From Vulcanimicrobiota bacterium (lineage in GTDB: Bacteria; Vulcanimicrobiota; Xenobia; Xenobiales; JADMJV01), in the NCBI GenBank assembly GCA_050250895.1, contig JBFWNU010000001.1, positions 3,392,139-3,456,138 on the forward strand: DNA of 64,000 bases. The letters are read 5' to 3'. Made by a program: the position numbers and the translations under genes. Shown in pieces: positions 12,086-26,051 of this stretch; positions within the stretch are counted from its first letter, which is position 1; every line of letters starts with the position of its first letter. The notes beneath the pieces are model-generated. The model was not told the DNA's origin. It worked only from the letters and a program-made list of their open reading frames with translations, and did not search any database.

Positions 12086-12766
12086 GTGAGCAACATCGAC
12101 ATTCATCTCAAGATCGACCGCCACCGGTCGGGTAACACTCGCATCCACGGCCGCGTGGGGGCCGACCAGCACGACGTCAACGTCTGGAAAGGTCCACAAC
12201 CTGGCGATGCCTACATCGAGGGACGCCAGAACGGGCAGCCCACCACGCTGCGCATCAACGGTGCCTTTTCGGACAGTGGCCAGGCCATTTTCGGCCGGGT
12301 GGCCGGAGTGCCGTTCAAAGGCAACTGGGCTCAGCAAGAGAGCGACGGCGACGCCCGGCTCGACCTGAACAAAGCCAATCTGACCATCGACAATGATCCC
12401 GCTGCCGGGACCACCGAGTCAAAAGGGACCGCTGTCAAGAGCAGCGGCAAAGTGGTCAACGCCGAAGGCGACGAAGAATTGACCCTTTTGGCTGACGGCC
12501 GCCGTATCAATCTTAGCGTGGACCGACAGCCGGGCGGCAACATCGAACTGCGCGGCCGCAGTGGAGACGGAAATTTTCGTGTCACCATGCGCCGCCACGG
12601 CCGCGAAGGCGACCTTCAGGTCGACGGTAGCTTGCCCGAGAACCTGGCTTTGCTACCCGTCATGTGGGAACTCTACGGCGACGACTCGGTCGAACCGCCG
12701 GCCAAGCCCCTGACCATGGGGGCGGCGGCAACCTTGAGCGCGTTCTGGGACACGCACCTGCGTTAG
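12086..12766 (+). CDS. Hypothetical beta-rich protein
   Basis: 226-aa ORF with typical codon usage; TAGCCT -10 element 6 nt before GTG. Confidence 0.7.
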   Translation: MSNIDIHLKIDRHRSGNTRIHGRVGADQHDVNVWKGPQPGDAYIEGRQNGQPTTLRINGAFSDSGQAIFGRVAGVPFKGNWAQQESDGDARLDLNKANLTIDNDPAAGTTESKGTAVKSSGKVVNAEGDEELTLLADGRRINLSVDRQPGGNIELRGRSGDGNFRVTMRRHGREGDLQVDGSLPENLALLPVMWELYGDDSVEPPAKPLTMGAAATLSAFWDTHLR

Positions 12767-14280
12767 CGCGGCGGGGGAGTGCCCACCAGCGACGGGTCCC
12801 AGAAATCGCCCGACTCATAGATGTGGCGCACCTGGCAGTAGATGAGCAGCGATTTGCTCACCGCCTCGGAGGCGGGCGTGCCTCGCCAGCGCAGACTCTG
12901 CTCTGTTAGCCGGCGCTCGCCATCACCTCGTTTGCGTAGCCGGTCCAAGAGCTGCAAAGCTACGGTCGACACTCCGGCTTCGGGACGGCAAGCTACGACC
13001 GGAGCGGGCCGCCCCACCAGCAGGCGCGCCATGGCTTCCAGCCGGCGCCCGTAGTTGTCGGGAGCATACAGATTGTTGGCCAGCCATCGTTGCCCCTCGA
13101 CCAGTTGCTCGAGTGAGAAACCAGCGGGCTTGATGTTGGTCTGCCAGGGCCAGCCGAAGGCCACCTCGCGATCCTCCAGTCGCCCCTCGCGTCGGAGCCG
13201 GGCGTAAAGCGGGGTGCCCATCGGGGCCACCAGGCTAGAAAGAGTGAAAAGTGGCACGGGCGACTCCTGGGCGAAGGCAAATTGCCGCTCGAAAATGCTG
13301 GGGTCGTCGTTGTCAAAGCCGACCATCATTCCGGCGTGGACCAGAATTCCGTGCTCGAGAAATCGGCTGATGTCGGCGATCAAATCCCTCCCGACGTTCT
13401 GTCGTTTGCCGGTTTCTCGAAGGCTCGCCTCGTTAGGCGTTTCGACTCCGATGAAGACTTCACTCAGACCGGCCGAAGCCGCCAGTTCGAGCAGTTGGGG
13501 ATCGCGGGCAGCGTCGATCGAGGCCTGAGTTGCCAGCAGCACAAAGTTGCCTCGGCGCCGATTCCAGTCGCGAACCGCCTCGAGCACCTCGCGCGCCCGG
13601 GCGCGATGCACCAGGAAATTGTCGTCGCAGACGAAGACCCGCGAGGCCCCGGCTGCGAGCAGCCCGTCGAGTTCTTGCAAGATGTTGGCCACCGGCTTAA
13701 ACCGCTGACGGCGGCCCAGATACTGAATGACATCACAGAACTCACATTGGAACGGACATCCTCGCGACGTCTGAAGAGCCCCCAGCCGGGCGCGTTTGAC
13801 CAGGTCGCGGCTCCATCGCGGGATAGGACTGGTCTCTAACTCGGGTCGCGTCCCCAGATAGGTGTCCCCGGCCTGACCCCGAGCCAGATCCGAAAAGAGC
13901 CCCTCGGCGATCTCTTCGATCTCTCCGGTCACCAGCACATCGCAATGATCGCGCACCGCTTCAGGATCGAGGGTGACCCCGGGACCCCCCATAACGACGG
14001 TTAGTCCCCGTCGGCGATAGCTGTCGCCGAGGGCCCGCATGCGAGGCAACTGGCTCGACTTGCCGGTGATGGCCACCACCGAGCCGTCAAAGTCGAGAGA
14101 GGCGGGGGTAAGGCGCTCGTCGCACACATGCACCTCGAAGAACGGTTCGGCCATGCTGGTCAGGGTGGGCAACACCAGGTCGGCGATGGCGGCCAGGGGC
14201 GTGGCTCCCCACTCGCGGGCGCAGTCAAGCTCGAAGAACGAGGGGGGAGCGGACGGGTTGATCAGGTAAAGGCTAGGCAC
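12763..14280 (-). CDS. B12-binding radical SAM enzyme (HpnP/DUF4070-like putative methyltransferase)
   Basis: LYLINP N-terminus, MGGPGVT, QTSRGCPFQCEFC (CxxxCxxC), DDNF, GVET, GFDND. GTG 14280 overlaps the upstream stop. Confidence 0.9.
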   Translation of the reverse strand: MPSLYLINPSAPPSFFELDCAREWGATPLAAIADLVLPTLTSMAEPFFEVHVCDERLTPASLDFDGSVVAITGKSSQLPRMRALGDSYRRRGLTVVMGGPGVTLDPEAVRDHCDVLVTGEIEEIAEGLFSDLARGQAGDTYLGTRPELETSPIPRWSRDLVKRARLGALQTSRGCPFQCEFCDVIQYLGRRQRFKPVANILQELDGLLAAGASRVFVCDDNFLVHRARAREVLEAVRDWNRRRGNFVLLATQASIDAARDPQLLELAASAGLSEVFIGVETPNEASLRETGKRQNVGRDLIADISRFLEHGILVHAGMMVGFDNDDPSIFERQFAFAQESPVPLFTLSSLVAPMGTPLYARLRREGRLEDREVAFGWPWQTNIKPAGFSLEQLVEGQRWLANNLYAPDNYGRRLEAMARLLVGRPAPVVACRPEAGVSTVALQLLDRLRKRGDGERRLTEQSLRWRGTPASEAVSKSLLIYCQVRHIYESGDFWDPSLVGTPPPR

Positions 14281-16996
14281 CGAGAGTCCCCAATATCCTG
14301 AGATGGTGTTCCAGGGCCCTGGGGCGCAGAGACGCCACCACATCGGGCCAGCGAAGTTCCAGATTCAGGGCCAGGGAACGGGTCAGAAACTCGACTCGTT
14401 CGTCGACCGTTCCGTAGGCGGGCTGGGCCACTTCGACGAATTCGCCGCGGACCTGACCGGTGGGGGTAATCTGGGGATAGAAGGCCAGCAGTCGGGCCCC
14501 CGTTTCGACCGCCAGACGGGCGGCGCCCGAGCGAAACACGCGCCTTCGCCCACGAAATGCGACCACCACCCCGTCTTCACCGTCGTCCCAATCCACGGCC
14601 ACCACTGCCACCCCTGCGCGGGAAAGTGCTCGTCGAGCCAGGTCCAACTGAATGAGGGACTCGGCGGTGGGATGCTGGGCGGGGTAGCCGAGTTGGCGTC
14701 GGGCCATCGTGCCCAGGCGGCCCACCGCCGCCAGGGGTCGGCCGGGGAAGGCCTCAGGGCCTAGCAGCAGGGGATTGAGCCGCGAATGGACGATGGCTAA
14801 CACCGTTCCCCCTTCGGGCTCACTCCAGCCGCAGGCTGTAGTCCACTCGCTAGAGATGGCGTGGCGCCGCCATCGTGACCAGGTGTTGGCCAGCATGAAG
14901 CGGGTCAGTAGCGGGCTCCAGGGTTGCTCCACCTGGCTGACTTCGAGCAGTTGACGCAAAAGACCGAGCTCGGACCTCCACAGCCTGGTTGCCAGCCAGG
15001 GCTGGCTCAGCAGCCTGGTCAGCAGCCACGATCCCGCGGCATAAGGCAGAACCAGTCGACCCCATTGGGGTCCTCGTTCCCGCACCAGAGAAAGCCAGTT
15101 TTTGGCGGGCTTGTGTGGCCGTCCCGGGGGCGGGGCAGAAGGCGGTTGCATCGGGGGTGATTGGCCCATCACTAGAGCCACCAATCCATTCACGGTAGGT
15201 TCCTCGGCCAGGGCCTCAACAGAAATCTCCACCGCCAATTGAGCCTCGAGACTCCAGATCAGATCCACCAGCGCGAGCGAGTCCAGGCCAACCGTCAGCA
15301 GATTAGCGTCGGCGTCCAGGGATTGACCCGTCTTGCTCTCGAGAACCCTGAGCACGTAGCGGACCAGGCTCTGGGGCGTTCGCTGGCGGGGAAGAGTGGG
15401 CTGGGTCGGGCCCCACCCCCTTAGCAGGTATGCTGCTCGGCAGGCTTGACGACGGAGTTTGCCGCTGGTGGTTACCTCGAGAAAGCCGGCTTCGACCAGG
15501 CGAACATCGGCCAGAACCAACCCGTGATGGTGCCAGATGGCGTGGCGCAAGTCGGCAGCCAGGAGCTCTTGCTGGGGGGGCGACAAAGATGACCGGCGTA
15601 GCTCGCCGATGAGCACCGCCGACTCGGTCGACTCACCGCCAGCCCGGATGCCGACCACGGCGACCCGCCGCAATCGATTTCCGCCAGCCTGCAGGGCTGT
15701 GTCTTCGAGGGGAGCGGGCGGGAAGTTGCGGCCTCCGCAGATGAGCATATCATCTTGACGTCCCACCACGTAAAGTTGACCGTTCTCGCAATAGCCGCGG
15801 TCGCCGGTGTGAAGCCAGCCGTCCTCGATGACCGCCGGTCCGTCCTCGAGATAGCCCGCCATGAGCGAGTGGGACCGGACCAGAATTTCTCCTGGTTGGC
15901 CATCCGAAACCATGCCGTGTTCTCCCCAAATGGCCACCTGGTTGCCCGGCAGGGCCGGACCGCAACTGACGACATCGTGGTCGTTCACCAGCATTCCGCC
16001 GTCGCTGATGGTCACCGCACAAGTGGCCTCGGCCAGGCCGTAGCCGGCTCGAAAGGTCTCGGGACGAGCGCCGAAGGCTGCAAATTTTTGCCAGAAGTTG
16101 CGCATGGTTTCTGCTTGGATCGGCTCTCCTCCATTGGCTACGATCCTCAGACTGCTCAGGTCAAGACCCGCCAGGTCCCGGGCTCGTGACCTGGTGGTGG
16201 CGTGATGATAGCCCCAGTTCGGCATGAAGATCATGCTGCCCGAGAATTCGCTGACGGCGCGAAACAGCAGCGAGGGGTTGCGCACCCACCGGGTGGGTGG
16301 CAGGGTGACCAGACGACCCCCGACTAAAAGCGGCATCAACAGATTCACCACCAGTCCAGCGTCGTGGTACCAGGGCATCCACCCTACCGCCACGTCGTCA
16401 AGGCCGAACGGAAAGGTGCGGGCCACGCAGTCGACCTGGCTCAACAGAGCGTGGGCCGAGATGAGCACGCACTTCGAGGCGCCGCTGGTGCCGCTGGTGA
16501 ACTGCAAGAAGGCCGGCTCGGTGGCGGCTACCCTTCGGCCTTGAGCCTGCCGCTCGGGCAACCTGGCCGGGTCAAACTCGAGCACCGGGCAGGCTGCCTC
16601 AAGCTCGGCCCCGGGGGCGGCCACGACCGCCCGAATCGAGTATTTCTCCACCCGGGCAGCCAGGGTCGGCCCATAGACATCGGTGCGCCGGTATTGCGAG
16701 AGGTAGGGCAGGACAGCGGGAACCATCCCGGCGTAGAGGGCGCCCAGGAAGGCCAGGATCATGGCCAGGTCGTGCTCGCCCGCCAACAAGACGCGGCTGC
16801 CCGGCTCGAGACCGGCCGCCTCGAACCAGGCTGCGCTCCGGCGCACCCGTTGCAGCAACTGCCGATAGCTGACTTTTTCCTCGAGGTCTGGCTTGGGTAG
16901 TGACACCACTCCCCAGCTTCTGAGATCAGGCTCATCCCAGCGATCCAGAAGGTCGGCCAGGGGCGTGTCACAGTCGCCCCGAAGGCCGTGGGGCAT
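14273..16996 (-). CDS. Fatty acyl-AMP ligase-ACP-acyltransferase fusion
   Basis: LQFTSGTSG, WMPWYHDAGL, GYGLAEAT, LHTGD, TTSGKLRR (FAAL); GLDSLA (ACP Ser); C-terminal domain resembling lipid A/HtrB acyltransferases (VAFRGRRRVFRSGAARLAVETGA). Confidence 0.85.
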   Translation of the reverse strand: MPHGLRGDCDTPLADLLDRWDEPDLRSWGVVSLPKPDLEEKVSYRQLLQRVRRSAAWFEAAGLEPGSRVLLAGEHDLAMILAFLGALYAGMVPAVLPYLSQYRRTDVYGPTLAARVEKYSIRAVVAAPGAELEAACPVLEFDPARLPERQAQGRRVAATEPAFLQFTSGTSGASKCVLISAHALLSQVDCVARTFPFGLDDVAVGWMPWYHDAGLVVNLLMPLLVGGRLVTLPPTRWVRNPSLLFRAVSEFSGSMIFMPNWGYHHATTRSRARDLAGLDLSSLRIVANGGEPIQAETMRNFWQKFAAFGARPETFRAGYGLAEATCAVTISDGGMLVNDHDVVSCGPALPGNQVAIWGEHGMVSDGQPGEILVRSHSLMAGYLEDGPAVIEDGWLHTGDRGYCENGQLYVVGRQDDMLICGGRNFPPAPLEDTALQAGGNRLRRVAVVGIRAGGESTESAVLIGELRRSSLSPPQQELLAADLRHAIWHHHGLVLADVRLVEAGFLEVTTSGKLRRQACRAAYLLRGWGPTQPTLPRQRTPQSLVRYVLRVLESKTGQSLDADANLLTVGLDSLALVDLIWSLEAQLAVEISVEALAEEPTVNGLVALVMGQSPPMQPPSAPPPGRPHKPAKNWLSLVRERGPQWGRLVLPYAAGSWLLTRLLSQPWLATRLWRSELGLLRQLLEVSQVEQPWSPLLTRFMLANTWSRWRRHAISSEWTTACGWSEPEGGTVLAIVHSRLNPLLLGPEAFPGRPLAAVGRLGTMARRQLGYPAQHPTAESLIQLDLARRALSRAGVAVVAVDWDDGEDGVVVAFRGRRRVFRSGAARLAVETGARLLAFYPQITPTGQVRGEFVEVAQPAYGTVDERVEFLTRSLALNLELRWPDVVASLRPRALEHHLRILGTLGA

Positions 16997-18716
16997 GCTG
17001 GATTGCCTGGTCACCGTCTCGTCACGAGATTTTCTAGTGGGTACGATGGTGATGTTGGGATCATTTGTCCGCCACCATCCGGACTTCGTCGGGGAGCTGA
17101 TGGTGGTCCATGACGATCTCGACCCAGAGCAGCAAGAATGGTTGCAGCAACGGATTGGAAGGGCGGTCGGCTTCGTCCCTGCCGACCCTTCCCTGGTGGG
17201 TGCCACCGCTCTGTTGCGGCACCGATTGGCGCGATTTGAGCGACGTTATCGTCAGTTCTACTCATTGCAGGCAATTTCACTCGAGGGCTACCGAAAGGTA
17301 ATCTTCTGCGACAGTGACACCCTTTTCCTTGCGCCCGTCCGGGACCTCTTCCAAGAGTCGTCCGAGTTGTTGGCCTGCCGGGATCGGATGACCATCCTGG
17401 GCCAACGCCGCTGCCGTAGAACCTTCGAGCCGGCTCCGCACAATGCGTTTGAAGCGACCTTCAATGCGGGTTTCATGGTATTCGATGGCAGCCGGCTCGG
17501 GGCCCCGGTCTTCGAGTCGGCTCTACGCTGGCTACGCCCAGAAATTCTGGCTGAGGTGCCGAATCACACCGATCAGTTTGTCCTGAATCATCTTTATGAG
17601 GGACGGGTCCACTGGCTCAGCAATCGATACAATTTCTTGCTGTCGGTGGCCCAAGAGCTTTTTGGCCAGGGGGGCCTCGAGGCGTCGCAGGTGCGAGTGG
17701 TTCACTTTGCCGGCAACGACGCGACTCCCTGGACCGACTATCAAGCGACACCCCCAACTCGGGTCTTCTATGAGGCCTGGCACCAACTGGCCGACGAGCT
17801 GCTTCGGGTCGGCTTGTCGGCGTATTCCAACCCGCAAGGCCCGGGTGGGAACTACCTGGCCCACGGCCTGGTCTGGCGGTCTGAGGTGCCCCTCGAGGCG
17901 CCCCGGACCGGCAGGCCGCCTGACGTAAGAATTCGTTGGGGAGCGACGCCTGAACCTGATGCCAGTTGGAAGCGACTTCCTTATGGCTGGGCCAAACCCG
18001 ACCAGTTTCTGGCCATCACCCCTGGGGGCGGACGCCTGTGGGTCTCTCGGGGCCAAGAGATTTGTCTCGACCAGCAGTCAGAGGACCCGCAGCTATTCTG
18101 GCTCTATTTGGTGGGCCTGGCTACCGGGGCTCTGTTGCTCGAGCGGGGTGAGTTGGTCCTGCATGGAGATGCCGTGGTGCTCGACGACCGGGCCGTGGTT
18201 TTAGGCGGACCGTCAGGTTGCGGCAAGTCCACGCTGGCCTGTCAGTTGGGCGGCCGTCTGCTTTGCGACGACGTGACGGTGGTGCGCAACAGCCCCGCCG
18301 GTCTGACCGTGTTGGCGGGCCTGGGGCCGCTTAAACCTCGGCTGCTTGGCCTGGCCAAGAACGGCCATCCGGCGCAAGAGGTCTTGAGCGGCCGGCCTGC
18401 CCGAGCGGCTATCCCCATCGAGCCGGCAGGTTCCCAGTTTCCGCTGGCGGCAGTCTATCTCCTCGACCAGCCCCCGGCCAGGATCCGGGGAGCGCGCCTG
18501 GCGGCCCTGGCCAAGACGCTGTTCTATCGGCCCGAACTGGCCGCCGCCCTGGGGCGCGCTCGGGAGAACTTCGACCACTTGCAGACTCTAGCCAGGACCC
18601 GGGTGGTGGGGCTCGAGTCCGCCGACCCGGCCGAGCAATCCAGGCGTATTCTTGCCGACCTGGAAGGAAAGATTTTCTGTCCCCCCGAGGAAGAGAGCGG
18701 CCATGGCCTGGTTTGA
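16995..18716 (+). CDS. GT8 glycosyltransferase fused to an HPr-kinase-like (lasso-peptide kinase type) domain
   Basis: GT8 motifs CDSD, FNAGFMV, DQFVLN, YNF, HFAG; kinase motifs LHGDAV, GPSGCGKST, CDD. Confidence 0.85.
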   Translation: MLDCLVTVSSRDFLVGTMVMLGSFVRHHPDFVGELMVVHDDLDPEQQEWLQQRIGRAVGFVPADPSLVGATALLRHRLARFERRYRQFYSLQAISLEGYRKVIFCDSDTLFLAPVRDLFQESSELLACRDRMTILGQRRCRRTFEPAPHNAFEATFNAGFMVFDGSRLGAPVFESALRWLRPEILAEVPNHTDQFVLNHLYEGRVHWLSNRYNFLLSVAQELFGQGGLEASQVRVVHFAGNDATPWTDYQATPPTRVFYEAWHQLADELLRVGLSAYSNPQGPGGNYLAHGLVWRSEVPLEAPRTGRPPDVRIRWGATPEPDASWKRLPYGWAKPDQFLAITPGGGRLWVSRGQEICLDQQSEDPQLFWLYLVGLATGALLLERGELVLHGDAVVLDDRAVVLGGPSGCGKSTLACQLGGRLLCDDVTVVRNSPAGLTVLAGLGPLKPRLLGLAKNGHPAQEVLSGRPARAAIPIEPAGSQFPLAAVYLLDQPPARIRGARLAALAKTLFYRPELAAALGRARENFDHLQTLARTRVVGLESADPAEQSRRILADLEGKIFCPPEEESGHGLV

Positions 18717-21382: not shown

Positions 21383-22131
21383 CCGAGTTCGAGCAGCAGG
21401 TCTCCAAAGCGTCTTTTGAACTCGCCTTTGATCTGGCTATTGAAGTGGTCACGCCAGTCTCCGGCGACTCCGCGCCGGTAGTGGTGATGGACGTCGACCT
21501 GACCGCGCGGGCGTCCCTGGCTCTGGGCCTCAAAGCCGTATCGGTCGAGGGCTTGCTCGAGCAATTCCTGGCAGTCGAGGCGCAAGAACGCAAAAGCCTG
21601 GTGCAAGACCGGTCGAGGCGACTCGATCAGGTCTTCAAAACGGAGTCTCAACAAGCGGTCGGACCACCCGCCACACTCGCGCAACTGCTCGAGGTAGACC
21701 GAGCTATAGTCAAGCTCGAGCAGCAGGCCTTGCTCCATGGGGAGGCTCTCGAGGCTTTGTCGGTGCTCGGCCTGGTAGGCGTGCCTCACCGGGTGGGAAT
21801 AGCGGTGGGAATAGTAGCACGAGACCAGCATGTCCCGCGGGTCTCGGATGAATTCACAGCCGCGGTAGTCGACTCTTTCCAATCGTTCGATCACAGCTGC
21901 GTGAGCGTTGCGGTGCAAGACCACATCCGAGCTGTTCAGGGCGCTTTCCCAACGGTGCAGCATTTGCAGCCAGGCGGCGATCGATTGGGGATGGCGGTGG
22001 GCGCGGGCGGGCAAGTGCTTGGGGCGATGCTCCTGAGTTAGGTCGAGGTCCAGGCCACGCGCTACGAACTTGACCACCTCGCGAACAAAGGTCGAGGCGC
22101 AACGGTGATGACACAGAAAGGCCCTGACCAT
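21358..22131 (-). CDS. Sulfotransferase domain protein (Sulfotransfer_1-like)
   Basis: HHRCAST, IRDPRDMLVSCYYS, RFEDL, RRGVAGDWRDHF. Confidence 0.85.
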   Translation of the reverse strand: MVRAFLCHHRCASTFVREVVKFVARGLDLDLTQEHRPKHLPARAHRHPQSIAAWLQMLHRWESALNSSDVVLHRNAHAAVIERLERVDYRGCEFIRDPRDMLVSCYYSHRYSHPVRHAYQAEHRQSLESLPMEQGLLLELDYSSVYLEQLRECGGWSDRLLRLRFEDLIESPRPVLHQAFAFLRLDCQELLEQALDRYGFEAQSQGRPRGQVDVHHHYRRGVAGDWRDHFNSQIKGEFKRRFGDLLLELGYENDSDW

Positions 22132-22132
22132 C

Positions 22133-23767
22133 TCACGCCTTGCCCGCCTCGACCCACTCCAAGAAGCGTCCCACCAGAATGGTCCGGACCAGGACCTTCA
22201 GGGCGAGATGGTAGGCCCCCGCCGAGAAATCGTCGTCGGCCGGAAGATGATGGAACAGGGGGCGAACCTGATCCCAGTCGATGAAGTGGTTGCAGAGTTG
22301 GCTGTTAGTCAGTCGCTCGAGTTCGCCGCGAAGCGCGGGCGCACAGCCGCGCAAACGGGCTTGCCAGCCAACGTCTTGCATGCCCACGGTGGACCGGTCG
22401 AGGACCAGGTCGGGCACGATCCCTCGCAGGCTGTCGCGCACGGCCCGGCGCTTTTGTCCCTCGCGAGCAAAGAACTCGCGGGGGGCCTGCAGGCAGAACT
22501 CCACCATTCGAAGATCGGTGGTGGGGTCGAGTTCTTCCAGTCCAAAGCGCCCTCGCCAGTAGTTATGCAAAGCACCCACTTTGCCCCGCAGATAGATGCG
22601 CAAGAAACGACCGCGGGGGCTCTGGTCGATGGCTCGCAATCGCTTCTCGAGTTCCAGTTCTCGGGCTCGTTCCGGCCGCAGGGCGAGGTCGGCCTTGCGC
22701 ACCGCGCTGCCCCGGCGAAGCCCAAGCGAGGTGGCCAGACGTTTCTTCCAGTTGGTCTTGGGCAGGCCCGAGGAGGAGAAGAGCAGATTGCCTCCCCGAC
22801 CTCCGATGAGAACGGTCAAGCCAGTCTCGACGGCCCGGGCCGCGATCTTTTCTCCCCAGCCTCCGAAGAGATGACGGGCGGGCTCGCCGGTGAGAGCGTG
22901 CCACTGGTCGTCGATGGCGGCCAGCGGATCACCGGGATCGCGTACATACTCGATCTTCAGGTTGGGATATTGCACGAGCACAGCGTCGATGAAGGGCTCG
23001 TCGCGATAGCTACGCCCAGGCGGCGCGGGCGCCTGACAATCTTCGGGTGGCAAGTAGGTGAAGCAGGGAAACTTTCGCTCGGGCCTTTGCCGGGCCGCCA
23101 GGCACGCTACCGAAGTCGAGTCCAACCCTCCGCTCAGGTGAAAGCCCACCTGTGTGTCCTGGGTCAGACAGTCCTCGACGGCGCAGGTGAAGAGGTCTCG
23201 AAACCGAGACTCGAGTTCGGGCAATTCCCCTCGACGCAGAGGACGATGCCAACGAAAGTCCGCCGGAGACCAATAGCTCTGGATTCGCGTCTGTTGTCCG
23301 TCAAAAAGCAAGAGATGACCCGGGGGAAGCTGGCGCAGGTCTTTAAACATAGTGCGGCTGGGCTCGGCTGTGCGCAAACCGCCTCCCACCAGCGCTGCGG
23401 CCACCGCCAACGGGTCGACCTCGGTCCCCACGCCGGGCAATTGCCGTAACCGGCGGATGTGGTTCGACAGCCAGAGCGGGTCGCCCGAACGATAGTAGAG
23501 GGTTCGGCCCCCCAGCGGTCCTCGGATGGCCACCAGCCTTCGTTCCTCGGTGTTCCAAAAGACGGCGCAAAAGTCATGGGCGACCCGGCTGCATTCGGCC
23601 GCCCCTTTGCTCAAGTAGGCCGCCAACAAGTGCTGCACGCCGCTGGCATCGACGGGAAGGTCAGACCGAAAGCGGGCGTCGGCCACGCCGAGCCAGGGCC
23701 CCACGGCTTCGCCGGACCCGCCGCCGACTGCGACCCGCCCATCGACTTCAAGGCAGAAATCAGCCAA
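22133..23767 (-). CDS. Asparagine synthetase-like lasso peptide cyclase (C protein)
   Basis: LPPGH, HLSGGLDSTSV, GGRGGN, DPTTDLRMVEFCL. Starts 3 nt after the precursor A1 stop. Confidence 0.85.
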   Translation of the reverse strand: MADFCLEVDGRVAVGGGSGEAVGPWLGVADARFRSDLPVDASGVQHLLAAYLSKGAAECSRVAHDFCAVFWNTEERRLVAIRGPLGGRTLYYRSGDPLWLSNHIRRLRQLPGVGTEVDPLAVAAALVGGGLRTAEPSRTMFKDLRQLPPGHLLLFDGQQTRIQSYWSPADFRWHRPLRRGELPELESRFRDLFTCAVEDCLTQDTQVGFHLSGGLDSTSVACLAARQRPERKFPCFTYLPPEDCQAPAPPGRSYRDEPFIDAVLVQYPNLKIEYVRDPGDPLAAIDDQWHALTGEPARHLFGGWGEKIAARAVETGLTVLIGGRGGNLLFSSSGLPKTNWKKRLATSLGLRRGSAVRKADLALRPERARELELEKRLRAIDQSPRGRFLRIYLRGKVGALHNYWRGRFGLEELDPTTDLRMVEFCLQAPREFFAREGQKRRAVRDSLRGIVPDLVLDRSTVGMQDVGWQARLRGCAPALRGELERLTNSQLCNHFIDWDQVRPLFHHLPADDDFSAGAYHLALKVLVRTILVGRFLEWVEAGKA

Positions 23768-23770
23768 TGG

Positions 23771-23911
23771 TCACGACAAGGCGTAAGAAGGAGCAGTCCC
23801 CCCGCCGTCGCCCGGATTGGTATCCATGTTGGTAGCCAGGGTGTTGGAGATATCGAGGCGCGTGAGAACGGGGGCGTTCCACGGTCTGCGCAGGCTGGGC
23901 TCATTACTCAT
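23771..23911 (-). CDS. Lasso peptide precursor A1 (46 aa): MSNEPSLRRPWNAPVLTRLDISNTL-ATNMDTNPGDGGGTAPSYALS
   Basis: Hand-translated. Leader motif WxxPxLxxLxIxxT; C-terminal Ser; lies between the RRE and cyclase genes. Confidence 0.85.
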   Translation of the reverse strand: MSNEPSLRRPWNAPVLTRLDISNTLATNMDTNPGDGGGTAPSYALS

Positions 23912-23985
23912 TGCCAGCCGTTTCGACGGCCTCAATCGGGGCCCTGCTGAAGGATTAGCGCGACCGATGCCAAAAGCGACAATCG

Positions 23986-24252
23986 ATGCTCTCGCGCAGT
24001 AACAACATCGTCGCTAGCGAACTTGATGGGGACCTCGTCATGATGAGCGTGGATACCGGTAATTACTATTCTCTCGACGAGGTGGGAGCGGCCATCTGGG
24101 AGCTGCTCGACCAGCCCCGTCCGACCGGTGAACTCGTAGAAGGGTTAGTCAAACGCTTCGAGGTCGAGCGCGAGACCTGTCTGGAAGATATCAAGCCCTT
24201 TTTGGCCGAACTGTTAGCCGAGGGGATCTTGATCGAGACCGCTCAAGATTGA
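23986..24252 (+). CDS. PqqD-family RiPP recognition element (lasso B1)
   Basis: ELDGDLVMMSVDTGNYYSLDEVGAAIWELL...FEVERETCLEDI..FL..L...GI. Confidence 0.92.
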   Translation: MLSRSNNIVASELDGDLVMMSVDTGNYYSLDEVGAAIWELLDQPRPTGELVEGLVKRFEVERETCLEDIKPFLAELLAEGILIETAQD

Positions 24253-24383
24253 TAACTGCCCATTCCGCCCCCGCCATCTGGCGGGTTGCCAGCGAGGGTG
24301 GTAGAGAGCGTGTTGGCGATCTCGAGCCGGGTTAGCCGGGGTGCCCGCCAGGCACGGCGCGGCATTTCTTGTATGTCTGACAT
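24243..24383 (-). CDS. Lasso peptide precursor A2 (46 aa): MSDIQEMPRRAWRAPRLTRLEIANTL-STTLAGNPPDGGGGMGSYQS
   Basis: Hand-translated. Paralogous to A1 (W.AP.LTRL.I.NTL.T....NP.DGGG...SY..S). Confidence 0.85.
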   Translation of the reverse strand: MSDIQEMPRRAWRAPRLTRLEIANTLSTTLAGNPPDGGGGMGSYQS

Positions 24384-24424
24384 AGCCGAAGCTTCGGCTT
24401 CGGGTAGGTCAGTCCTGCCTCAGA

Positions 24425-24616
24425 TTAGAAGGCGAAGGCGCTGGTCAGATTGGCCACCAGATCGTTGGCCTCGTCGTCGTCCTCGAAGGCCTCGGCGCCC
24501 AGGTTGATGTGGTCGCAAGGGGCGACCGTCCCCGCCACTTCGGGAGCCTGGCCGGCAAAACTCCAGAGTTGATTCTGGTTCTGGAGTTGACTGGTGGAGA
24601 TGTAAGTGTCTTTCAT
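24425..24616 (-). CDS. Small acidic hypothetical protein (63 aa)
   Basis: GAGGT RBS; DHINLG motif; acidic tail. Confidence 0.6.
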   Translation of the reverse strand: MKDTYISTSQLQNQNQLWSFAGQAPEVAGTVAPCDHINLGAEAFEDDDEANDLVANLTSAFAF

Positions 24617-24713
24617 CGTCGTGAAACCTCGCTGCCCTTTGATTCTGCCACAGCAGCCTTAAAGAAACCTTGAGCCCGCCAGGGATCTCGCCTTGACGAC
24701 GGAAGGTCGGGGC

Positions 24714-26051
24714 ATGAAGCGCCCTTCACAACTCGAGCAGTTTCTTGAGAGCCAGCAGGAGGTCGGCCAGACCGAGTCCCATGGCGCCTTTACCATCGCC
24801 CGAGACGAGGCGCTCAGAAAACTGGCCTCGTTTCGGCTGCCCTTCGAGCGCGCCTGGGTACTCAAGATCGTGCAGGCGGCGGTGGCCTCGGGGGCGCCTT
24901 CGCTCGACATCAAGCAAACCTCCACCGATACCGAATTCCACTTCGCCGCTCCCAAGAGCTGGACGCTCGAGCGGTTGGAGGCGGCCTTCTTCAACCCCCA
25001 AATGTCAGGAGATCGCGCCCTGGACCATCTCCTGGCGGGTCTGTGGGGCGCCAGCCTCAACGATGGCCGGCCTTTCCAACTGCTCTGGCCCGGCTGCCCC
25101 GAATCGCTGATCTGGTCGGGCCGCGAGATGACCCGCATCCAGGACCCCGAACCGGTGAGACAAATGCAACTGGTGGTCTCGCACCGGCGCCTCGAGGAAG
25201 GCAAGGGGATCTTCGGTATTCGCTACATTCAGGCCGCCCAGCGCAACGCCGACATTCTCAAGACGCTGACCCACCGGGCCTTCACCTGTTCCATTCCGCT
25301 GCGGGTCGACGCCCGTCGCATGGACGCCCTGCCGCTCTCTCCCAATCACGGTTATAGCCAGGCCAATCATCCCGTCTGTGTGGGCTGGGCCCCCGGCGGT
25401 TCGCTTGTCCTGCCGCCGGGGACCTTCGCGGGTGTGCTCCCCTCCGAACAGACCCACAAAAAAGAGGCCACGCGCTCGCTATCTTCTCAGGTGGAACGGC
25501 CAGCCGTGCCCGACACTAACAAGGTTGTGGCCGCCTGGCTGATGACCACGCATTTTGAAGAGGTCAAAAGCGGCAAGAGCAAGACCTGGAAGCTGCGCGA
25601 CCAGGCCAGCAAGCTCTACTGGGTTCATGACGGGGTGATTCTTGGCTCGGAAGAACTCTTTCCCATCGAGAGGTCTGTTTCCATCGGAGTGTTTGCAGAC
25701 GCGGGCGACCTCAAACTGGACGTCACCGGCTTCGGCATCATCCACGAAGAGGCGCACGAGGCCCGCAGGAAGCGAGTGCTGCAGACGGCGGCCGCCGCTT
25801 TCGAAGCGGTCCCGGTCATCTCGCTGCAGGGCCTGGTCGAGGATGCCCAGCAATCGGGTCGCTCGGTAGGCACCGTCATGGCGGTGGGGGGAGTGTTGAC
25901 GCTGGCCCTATCGCCCTTGCACTCGTTGATGTTCTTCGCCGGGGCCGCCTTTTCTTATTACACGGCCGGCAACGTCGAGGCCGGCATCGAGAGTGGTTTG
26001 CAGACGGCCCTTTCTGACCTGCGGGCTCAGTACTTGTCCGAGTGGGGTTAG
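24714..26051 (+). CDS. Hypothetical membrane-anchored protein with a possible degenerate GHKL/HATPase-like N-terminus
   Basis: GAFTIARDEALRKLASFRLP...WVLKIVQAAVASGA; two C-terminal TM helices. Confidence 0.65.
   Translation: MKRPSQLEQFLESQQEVGQTESHGAFTIARDEALRKLASFRLPFERAWVLKIVQAAVASGAPSLDIKQTSTDTEFHFAAPKSWTLERLEAAFFNPQMSGDRALDHLLAGLWGASLNDGRPFQLLWPGCPESLIWSGREMTRIQDPEPVRQMQLVVSHRRLEEGKGIFGIRYIQAAQRNADILKTLTHRAFTCSIPLRVDARRMDALPLSPNHGYSQANHPVCVGWAPGGSLVLPPGTFAGVLPSEQTHKKEATRSLSSQVERPAVPDTNKVVAAWLMTTHFEEVKSGKSKTWKLRDQASKLYWVHDGVILGSEELFPIERSVSIGVFADAGDLKLDVTGFGIIHEEAHEARRKRVLQTAAAAFEAVPVISLQGLVEDAQQSGRSVGTVMAVGGVLTLALSPLHSLMFFAGAAFSYYTAGNVEAGIESGLQTALSDLRAQYLSEWG

Follow-up and report, generated by a model that had tools for sequence, protein, structure and literature searches.

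What size of ring do two short precursor genes of a Vulcanimicrobiota bacterium specify? The genes, A1 and A2, lie in a stretch of 64,000 nucleotides (nt) of contig JBFWNU010000001.1 (assembly GCA_050250895.1, positions 3,392,139 to 3,456,138 of the forward strand), hereafter called the window, among genes of the kind that make lasso peptides. Under the published numbering for their leader type, the only acidic core residue common to A1 and A2 is Asp10. We consider a 10-residue ring to be the single most likely outcome, at somewhat less than an even chance, and sequence comparison alone cannot separate it from a shifted cut that would give a ring of seven or nine residues.

A1 and A2 are real genes, not chance open reading frames (ORFs), for they flank a gene (B1) encoding a PqqD-type recognition element (RRE) for peptides that are made on ribosomes and modified after translation (RiPPs), an Asn-synthetase-type cyclase gene begins 4 nt past the A1 stop codon, and a profile made from three peptides of the source genome retrieves relatives (P0005, P0008 and P0009, E 5.6e-5 to 7.1e-4, among 1.84 billion proteins). 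A2 and B1 are convergent, and their 3' ends overlap by 10 nt. With the predicted cut marked by a slash, A1 reads ...RRPWNAPVLTRLDISNTL/ATNMDTNPGDGGGTAPSYALS (in full MSNEPSLRRPWNAPVLTRLDISNTL-ATNMDTNPGDGGGTAPSYALS) and A2 reads ...RRAWRAPRLTRLEIANTL/STTLAGNPPDGGGGMGSYQS (in full MSDIQEMPRRAWRAPRLTRLEIANTL-STTLAGNPPDGGGGMGSYQS). Both leaders have the pattern W..P.L..L.I..T-L and both peptides end in Ser; the paeninodin-like motif WxxPxL at -15 to -10 and the Thr at -2 fall at W11, P14, L16 and T24 in A1 and at W12, P15, L17 and T25 in A2, so numbered that the core starts at residue 26 or 27. Against the model for paeninodin family lasso peptides (NF033524), A1 scores 18.8 bits (E 9.6e-4), below the cut-off of 27, and A2 gives no match at E <= 0.1.

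In this register, written NTL/, the two cores have in common a small residue 1, T2, N7, P8, D10, G11-13, S17, Y18 and a terminal Ser. The acidic residues are D5 and D10 in the A1 core and D10 alone in the A2 core. A sequence-only reading of this DNA had placed the two ORFs where we find them, listed the residues common to both cores and remarked that A2 has no second Asp or Glu; ORF reading and translation bear out the positions, every residue of the list and the solitary D10 of A2. Two other ways of closing a ring were rejected: Asp5 of A1 would give a five-residue ring, which is too small, and has no counterpart in A2; and a triculamin-type ring through a Lys side chain finds no Lys in either core. 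The peptides are 56% identical and paralogous, so that their shared Asp10 represents one inherited feature and not two independent events.

The register itself rests on the spacing of the leader. Work on the crystal structure of a paeninodin-like precursor assigns the motif residues the numbers W-15, P-12 and L-10 (PMC13381572), which puts core residue 1 at P+12, counted from the motif Pro, and Thr(-2) at P+10. A1 and A2 are identical through ...NTL and begin to diverge at P+12, as expected for a leader/core boundary, with a small residue 1 (Ala, Ser). Relatives of clearer register place the junction alike. A Priestia plasmid peptide annotated at NCBI as 'paeninodin family lasso peptide' reads T(+10)M(+11)/L...D9, two further precursors of the source genome have Thr-Leu at P+10/P+11 (L005, TL/AVNAGPGTD, D9; C9/L007, TL/GGMSKMVNE, E9), and a Thalassobaculum plasmid peptide, partner of the closest RRE (43% identity), reads NTL/G.

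To compare spacing across the family we tabulated 34 peptides, A1 and A2 included, with positions relative to the motif Pro. They came from a profile search of the 1.84 billion proteins, a word-indexed search, the source genome, 80 metagenome loci reached through the cyclase, ten plasmid loci reached through the RRE, and one peptide (G060) from a same-family genome in a search of the phylum; four rows missed by the script's motif were counted by hand. Left out were eight loci with long peptides ending ...KLGFSFEMAFPLSAR, the remaining weak matches of the phylum search, and two false positives (P0004 and P0006), which are leucine-rich-repeat proteins that the leader profile matched through their repeats. 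A Thr at P+10 together with an acidic residue is found in 21 of the 34 peptides, and the ring that this Thr would set has nine residues in 11, eight in four, seven in two, 11 in one (P0010) and 10 in three (A1, A2 and P0011); besides these last three, 17 of 18 fall at seven to nine. The other rows have Thr at P+11 (three peptides, rings of nine, eight and nine), P+12 (two, both seven) or P+13 (one, seven), no Thr in the region (four) or no acidic residue at all (three).

The third peptide of this set, P0011, comes from a metagenome and is not linked to the source genome. It aligns with A1 and A2 without gaps from the Trp to the Asp-Gly, with 14 of 29 residues identical to A1, and has Thr(+10) and Asp(+21), the residues in between being Ala (P+13 and P+14 among them), Met, Pro and Cys only. 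Since P0011 has no Thr between +10 and +21, the Thr(-2) rule permits only a 10-residue ring, and the peptide is an independent case of this. By the numbering valid for this leader type, the acceptor is thus predicted at position 10 in A1, A2 and P0011 alike. P0011 further has two Cys, core residues 6 and 39, that could tie the ring to the tail.

Relatives beyond these are few. A related-locus search with the A1/A2 alignment found no close relatives in species genomes, a word-based protein search with A2 returned A2 itself only, and tblastn of A1 and A2 against plasmids gave only chance matches inside unrelated genes. In a search of 401 genomes of the phylum, the source included, there were outside the source only weak matches in five genomes (E 1.4e-3 to 5.6e-3), of which one is a real leader with a six-residue, acid-less core (G060) and the others are doubtful. 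The G060 peptide (locus L011, at ~931 on the + strand, from the same family as the source), MKRTWITPEITKLEIKETA/THPIGS, combines a paeninodin-type leader with a core that ends in Ser, and resembles the linear phosphorylated peptides described in PMC13381572.

From the genes, domains, leader motif, Asp position and spacing in relatives set out here we infer how the leader is cut, the ring closed, the tail threaded and the peptide modified, as follows. The RRE B1 would bind the WxxPxL leader, and a B2 cysteine peptidase encoded in another part of the genome (the likeliest candidate being the orphan at C1:933382-933912) would cut after Thr-Leu (NTL/). The short, divergent cyclase would then join the new N-terminus (Ala1 or Ser1) to the conserved Asp, giving a 10-residue macrolactam, one residue beyond any characterized natural lasso ring. 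A GT8/HprK fusion protein and sulfotransferases would decorate the C-terminal Ser and perhaps Tyr18, and these bulky groups may be needed to hold the Gly-rich tail threaded through the wide ring. Such a steric-lock role, which the sequence-only reading had raised, is a reasonable idea by analogy with pseudomycoidin: its unmodified form was found unthreaded, and bulky groups at the C-terminus were suggested, as a speculation, to assist threading (PMC6993621). A ring of 10 residues is enzymatically feasible, given the report of an unnatural 10-mer fusilassin variant (10.1101/2020.11.25.399105; PMC8498205). Taken as a whole, this account, in which the paralogues A1 and A2 give rise to a heavily tailored lasso peptide of paeninodin/pseudomycoidin type closed at Asp10, is a serious possibility that stops short of probable. 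More tentative is the wider proposal that A1, A2 and P0011 represent a natural 10-ring lasso subfamily with an unusually short cyclase, a ring too wide for ordinary plug residues, a fold held instead by bulky phospho-, glyco- or sulfo-groups on the C-terminal Ser or on Tyr (A1, A2) or by a ring-to-tail Cys6-Cys39 disulfide (P0011), and a peptidase shared in trans among several clusters of the genome.

The cyclase that would have to carry out this closure is short and divergent. It retains the PP-loop motif SGGLDS and scores 122.6 bits against NF033535, far under the cut-off of 525. About 57 N-terminal and 31 internal residues present in 11 homologues are absent. Among 5.8 billion clustered proteins the closest to it reaches 36% identity and the second closest 29%, and no close relative was found in 185,579 species genomes.

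The locus lacks a leader peptidase of its own. Of the cyclase-plus-RRE clusters in the genome, at least four in number, only that on contig C9 is accompanied by B2 (PF13471) in cis. Within the 64-kb window there is no PF13471 match, and genome-wide there are four: the C9 cluster, an orphan (match at C1:933577-933900) and two weak ones inside large proteins. The orphan gene (C1:933382-933912; L006 8383..8913, + strand) lies ~2.5 Mb from the A1/A2 locus and far from any cyclase, between type II secretion/pilus genes on one side and pdxS/pdxT on the other, and passes NF033537 with 96.6 bits against a cut-off of 33. It is a candidate trans-acting leader peptidase for three B2-less clusters. Modelled as a complex, B1, A2 and the orphan B2 scored 0.75, compared with 0.07 for the best of three controls, at a mark that 51 of 78 solved complexes and two of 108 mismatched pairs reach; runs agreed in at least 55% of contacts, and the partner predicted local distance difference test (pLDDT) score was at least 75. 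A2 residues 18-25 are placed confidently on B2, ending at Thr25, and the B2 side of the interface includes Cys117 and His150. As the family is a textbook one, the pass may reflect memory of solved complexes. The model supports binding of the RRE and leader of the A1/A2 locus by the orphan B2, which is not the same as identifying the acting peptidase.

Several points weigh against a ring of 10 residues. Characterized natural lasso rings have seven to nine residues, as the sequence-only reading had stated, and three sources, in what they say of ring size, give this same range with none above nine (10.1101/2020.11.25.399105; PMC8498205; PMC5067487). With Thr at P+10, the first usable acceptor of both A1 and A2 is residue 10 rather than one at 7-9, and an acceptor in that range is obtained only by assuming the second Thr (ring of seven) or a cut after P+12 (ring of nine). 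LassoPred, as described, allows acceptors at positions 7-9 only (PMC12214591), and according to a 2026 review a one-residue change in ring size usually cuts production strongly (PMC13352647). Full-text literature searches, with most subscription journals outside their coverage, found no 10-residue ring in any natural lasso peptide; the 'unprecedented ring' of Metanodin refers, in its description, to Asn at position 1 and not to a new size (PMC12670498). The window contains no B2, so both the cutting peptidase and the cut site are predicted only, and A1 and A2 are known here from their genes alone, with a predicted product whose tail has a single bulky residue, Tyr18. A look-up for window 22100-24700 gave no sequencing run and no RNA record. 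P0011, for its part, is one weak match of the profile search (E 0.62) on a 949-bp contig without context.

There is, moreover, a second Thr, at P+13, common to A1, A2 and P0005. If Thr27 of A1 and Thr28 of A2 were the true Thr(-2), a cut after Asn or Thr would let Met1 or Leu1 join Asp7 (MDTNPGD, LAGNPPD), P0005 would likewise have a ring of seven, starting with Phe, and the product would be an ordinary small-ring lasso peptide with an unusually long leader linker. Every ring then falls inside the known range of seven to nine: by hand count, a 'Thr then Thr/Asn' pair gives P0009 and P0010 rings of seven and nine, compared with nine and 11 in the P+10 register, and the A. oryzae peptide L099, with Thr only at P+12 to P+14, also comes to seven. 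The annotated Priestia peptide, too, has a core that starts with Leu. A linker of equal length is in use in the same organism, since the precursor of a neighbouring cluster, ...LPVPVVAATL/GGPYDIED, has Thr(+13)-Leu(+14) before GGPYDIE; the RRE of that cluster, which has no B2 nearby, is the closest in-genome relative of B1 (34% identity). In a tree of 26 RRE sequences the window RRE falls in an unresolved polytomy, and the tree assigns it to no linker class. We nevertheless regard a seven-residue ring as unlikely. It is closed to P0011, where Thr(+10) and Asp(+21) are present but P+13 and P+14 are Ala, and it leaves the conserved NTL unexplained, though relatives of unambiguous register have matching junctions. 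Leaders of this type are numbered P-12 in print, not P-15 (PMC13381572), and Asn or Thr occupies -1 only where the register is itself ambiguous. The complex model places A2 confidently only up to Thr25, which is weak evidence, as the residues it does not name are merely uncertain. A smaller shift, with the cut after P+12 (NTLA/T, NTLS/T) and Leu at -2, would give rings of nine from Thr1 to Asp9 (TNMDTNPGD, TTLAGNPPD); this, or less likely a cut two residues later with a ring of eight, strikes us as quite improbable. It would bring all four peptides with an acceptor at P+21 (A1, A2, P0011 and P0005) to nine, and in P0005, where P+10 is Asp and P+11 is Thr, the Thr(-2) falls at just that spacing (T+11, Q+12 / T+13), as it does in the plasmid peptides L100 and L102, also with Thr at P+11, so that a junction after P+12 is possible in the family. 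P0005, P0009 and L099 each have a core that opens with Thr-Thr or Thr-Asn and closes with x6-Asp-Gly-Gly, Ile or Val at -2 is reported as validated or predicted in phosphorylated lasso precursors (PMC10368454), and LPP leaders, which are related, carry the number P-13 (PMC13381572). Yet the shift costs three of the four peptides their Thr(-2), with Leu, Leu and Ala in its place, Leu lies outside the documented substitutes, Thr at position 1 is known from predicted, uncharacterized peptides only, and the conserved Thr at P+10 is left without a role.

An outcome without any macrolactam is likewise unlikely in our estimate. The lasso cluster would then be incomplete or in decay, or A1 and A2 would mature into peptides that are linear, or modified in some other way, and bear phospho-, glyco- or sulfo-groups, with the Asn-synthetase homologue in another role. 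The truncated cyclase (122.6 against a cut-off of 525) and the absence of B2 are consistent with such an outcome, the latter the more so as B2 lies on the fetched stretch in 28 of the 80 related metagenome loci, including most of those with a family-like precursor. Relatives with the same leader can lack an acidic core residue (Thalassobaculum L098, and G060 with its six-residue core), and a Bacillota family of linear phosphorylated peptides is described with the same RRE-binding motif (PMC13381572). On the other hand, precursors, RRE, cyclase PP-loop (SGGLDS) and tailoring genes are all intact open frames, and the Asp-Gly-Gly-Gly block is kept between the 56%-identical paralogues and found also in P0011 and L099. 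The genome does contain two B2 genes, with the complex model supporting the orphan as a binder of RRE and leader, and pseudomycoidin was reported to be made even without B1/B2 (PMC6993621). The sequence-only reading had offered two options, a ring of 10 or a ring of seven starting with Met or Leu. Both proved compatible with the family comparison, and it had overlooked the nine-residue ring and the absence of B2. The check it proposed, aligning homologous precursors to fix the register, strengthens the observation and leaves both the second Thr and the one-residue shift plausible. We therefore keep the 10-residue ring as the favoured reading at the strength given at the outset.

The features of the locus are collected in the table below. 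With a PF00733 synthetase adjoining the precursor and a PqqD-type RRE, it has two features of the lasso class. By its WxxPxL leader, C-terminal Ser, PqqD RRE, cyclase and HprK-like kinase domain, we assign it to the kinase-associated lasso clusters of the paeninodin/pseudomycoidin kind, among which its predicted tailoring genes are unusually many. The pairing of a C-terminal Ser in both A1 and A2 with an HprK-like kinase domain is itself paeninodin-like. The kinase half of the GT8/HprK fusion was recognized through a tblastn match of a sister-cluster kinase (window 17850-18593, 34.7% identity, E 8e-17) and through weak matches of residues 415-471 to the curated kinase models HprK_rel_A/B; the fusion is a likely modifier of the C-terminal Ser.

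Features of the A1/A2 locus, in window coordinates (lengths in amino acids, aa; A1 and A2 leaders, cores and codons in the Thr(-2) register)
Feature	Position	Strand	Evidence or remark
GT8 glycosyltransferase/HprK-like kinase fusion, 607 aa	16893..18716	+	PF01501, residues 38-282
Asp/Asn beta-hydroxylase-like protein, 205 aa	18652..19269	+	PF05118 E 1.7e-6
TIGR03032/DUF4915 family protein, 325 aa	19238..20215	+	PF16261 E 4.7e-89; TIGR03032 293.6 bits, cut-off 251.5
Asp/Asn beta-hydroxylase-like protein, 184 aa	20206..20760	+	PF05118 E 1.9e-10
Sulfotransferase, 211 aa	20747..21382	+	PF17784 E 1.5e-33
Sulfotransferase, 257 aa	21358..22131	-	PF00685 E 3.9e-12; directly downstream of cyclase
Asn-synthetase-type lasso cyclase, 544 aa from TTG (523 aa in collection)	22133..23767	-	PF00733 E 1.1e-23
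Precursor A1	23771..23911	-	46 aa plus stop from ATG; collection entry P0002
A1, alternative TTG start	23771..23935	-	54-aa form
A1 leader, residues 1-25	23911..23837	-	Thr(-2) register
A1 core, residues 26-46	23836..23774	-	Thr(-2) register
A1 Thr24 codon	23840..23842	-	canonical Thr(-2) at P+10
A1 Thr27 codon	23831..23833	-	alternative Thr at P+13
A1 Asp35 codon	23807..23809	-	core position 10 (P+21), proposed macrolactam acceptor; read from sequence
B1, PqqD-type RRE, 88 aa	23986..24252	+	PF05402 E 6.7e-21; NF033536 lasso_PqqD_Bac 82.3 bits, cut-off 80
Precursor A2	24243..24383	-	46 aa plus stop; collection entry P0001
A2 leader	24383..24306	-	
A2 core	24305..24246	-	
A2 Thr25 codon	24309..24311	-	canonical Thr(-2)
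A2 Thr28 codon	24300..24302	-	alternative Thr at P+13
A2 Asp36 codon	24276..24278	-	core position 10 (P+21); sole acidic residue in A2 core

Some neighbouring sequences deserve mention. Directly upstream of A2 on the same strand is an ORF of 63 residues (window 24425..24616, - strand) with a Shine-Dalgarno-like GAGG, acidic and ending ...AFAF, for which no family match was found; a perfect 16-nt palindrome, AGCCGAAGCTTCGGCT, lies between this ORF and the A2 start codon. Divergent from the precursor operon is a gene for a 452-residue protein with no Pfam or NCBIfam match (window 24693..26051, + strand). On the far side (window 12763..17206, - strand) are a B12-binding radical SAM gene and a gene for a 977-residue AMP-binding/peptidyl carrier protein (PCP) protein.

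Two other clusters of the source genome contain precursors with a related leader. The L005 cluster (contig C1:2154000-2173999) has a third precursor of the same leader type (L005 9926..10153, - strand), ...RQTL/AVNAGPGTDGCDGGCDSCGCTYSAS, to which the metagenome peptide P0003 is near-identical. Its neighbours encode a YcaO cyclodehydratase, a ThcOx/nitroreductase-type dehydrogenase, an HprK-like kinase, a sulfotransferase and an Asn-synthetase-type cyclase, with no B2 nearby, and a lasso/azole hybrid, its tail rich in Cys, is a possible product. The C9 cluster, with sulfotransferase, PqqD, B2 and cyclase genes, looks canonical; its 93-residue precursor (L007 7559..7840, + strand), ...KWENPIVYRMGVPGTL/GGMSKMVNEGG..., ends in Ser, its tail being longer than 60 residues.

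Outside the source genome, the plasmid NZ_CP139716.1 of Thalassobaculum sp. OXR-137 (L098, 4432..4659, - strand) encodes an unannotated peptide whose leader, RRPWSAPRLSLLPIENTL, is near-identical to those of A1 and A2 and whose 14-residue core, GPSTFSSGQAAHVS, has no Asp or Glu; around it are an Asn-synthase-related gene, two HprK-like genes, a sulfotransferase, a PqqD gene and an adjoining IS21 element, and no B2. The eight long-peptide loci of metagenomes (L017, L022, L023, L024, L028, L029, L031 and L072) encode peptides that run ~60-70 residues past the motif, with a W..P leader and a conserved C-terminal ...P.TKLGFSFEMAFPLSAR... block; they adjoin lasso-type B2, RRE and cyclase genes and form a distinct subfamily. 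P0007 (148 residues) has three tandem leader-plus-core units in one ORF (...AWEAPAVTAMSIARTA/SLSGGGSD...) and may be a multi-core precursor.

Why the ring size matters is readily stated. The limit of seven to nine residues is written into every description of lasso peptides and built into the tools that find and model them (LassoPred, PMC12214591), with the consequence that precursors outside it would be missed or mis-registered. If A1 and A2 do yield a natural 10-residue ring, they widen the accessible scaffold, show a cyclase specialized for a larger size, and allow a direct test of whether post-translational groups replace bulky side chains as the mechanical lock, which for pseudomycoidin has so far been speculation. 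If the ring has seven or nine residues instead, the Thr(-2) rule and motif spacing can indicate different cleavage sites within one family, and the locus still shows that B2-less clusters exist that must borrow a peptidase.

The known systems resemble the A1/A2 locus each in part. Xanthomonins and huascopeptin are lasso peptides with seven-residue rings that start with Gly. They would share their ring size with A1 and A2 if the second Thr were the true -2 residue; the A1 and A2 rings, in contrast, would start with Met or Leu, and that of A2 would contain two consecutive Pro. BsfA of Bradymonas sediminis, as described, is likewise a kinase-associated precursor, one in which the Thr(-2) rule fails (Ile at -2) and the junction was set by motif spacing and in vitro cleavage; it differs in its YxxPxL motif at -17 to -12, its Gly1-Asp8 ring, its phosphorylation at Ser3 and the presence of B2 in the cluster (PMC10368454). 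The engineered fusilassin variant (Thermobifida fusca FusA/B/C/E, in vitro) is the reported case of a 10-residue macrolactam made by a lasso cyclase, whereas its acceptor was moved, unnaturally, in a substrate for a ring of nine, within an actinobacterial YxxPxL system without tailoring (10.1101/2020.11.25.399105; PMC8498205). The locus also resembles paeninodin (Paenibacillus dendritiformis), pseudomycoidin (Bacillus pseudomycoides) and the paeninodin-like PbaA (P. alginolyticus), which are described with a WxxPxL leader and PqqD-type RRE, Thr(-2), an Asn-synthetase-type cyclase and a C-terminal Ser on which an HprK-like kinase acts and which in pseudomycoidin also receives a sugar (PMC6993621; PMC13381572; PMC8498205); the corresponding modification of A1 and A2 is predicted. 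In this group the rings are reported to run from Ala1 to Asp9, in pseudomycoidin by nuclear magnetic resonance (PMC6993621), whereas the same numbering gives Asp10 in A1 and A2; B2 and an ABC exporter are encoded in cis there and neither is found in the window. At the A1/A2 locus, by comparison, the kinase is fused to a GT8 glycosyltransferase, the cyclase is ~100 residues shorter, with no match found above 36% identity, and two sulfotransferases, two hydroxylase-like genes and a TIGR03032 protein are added.

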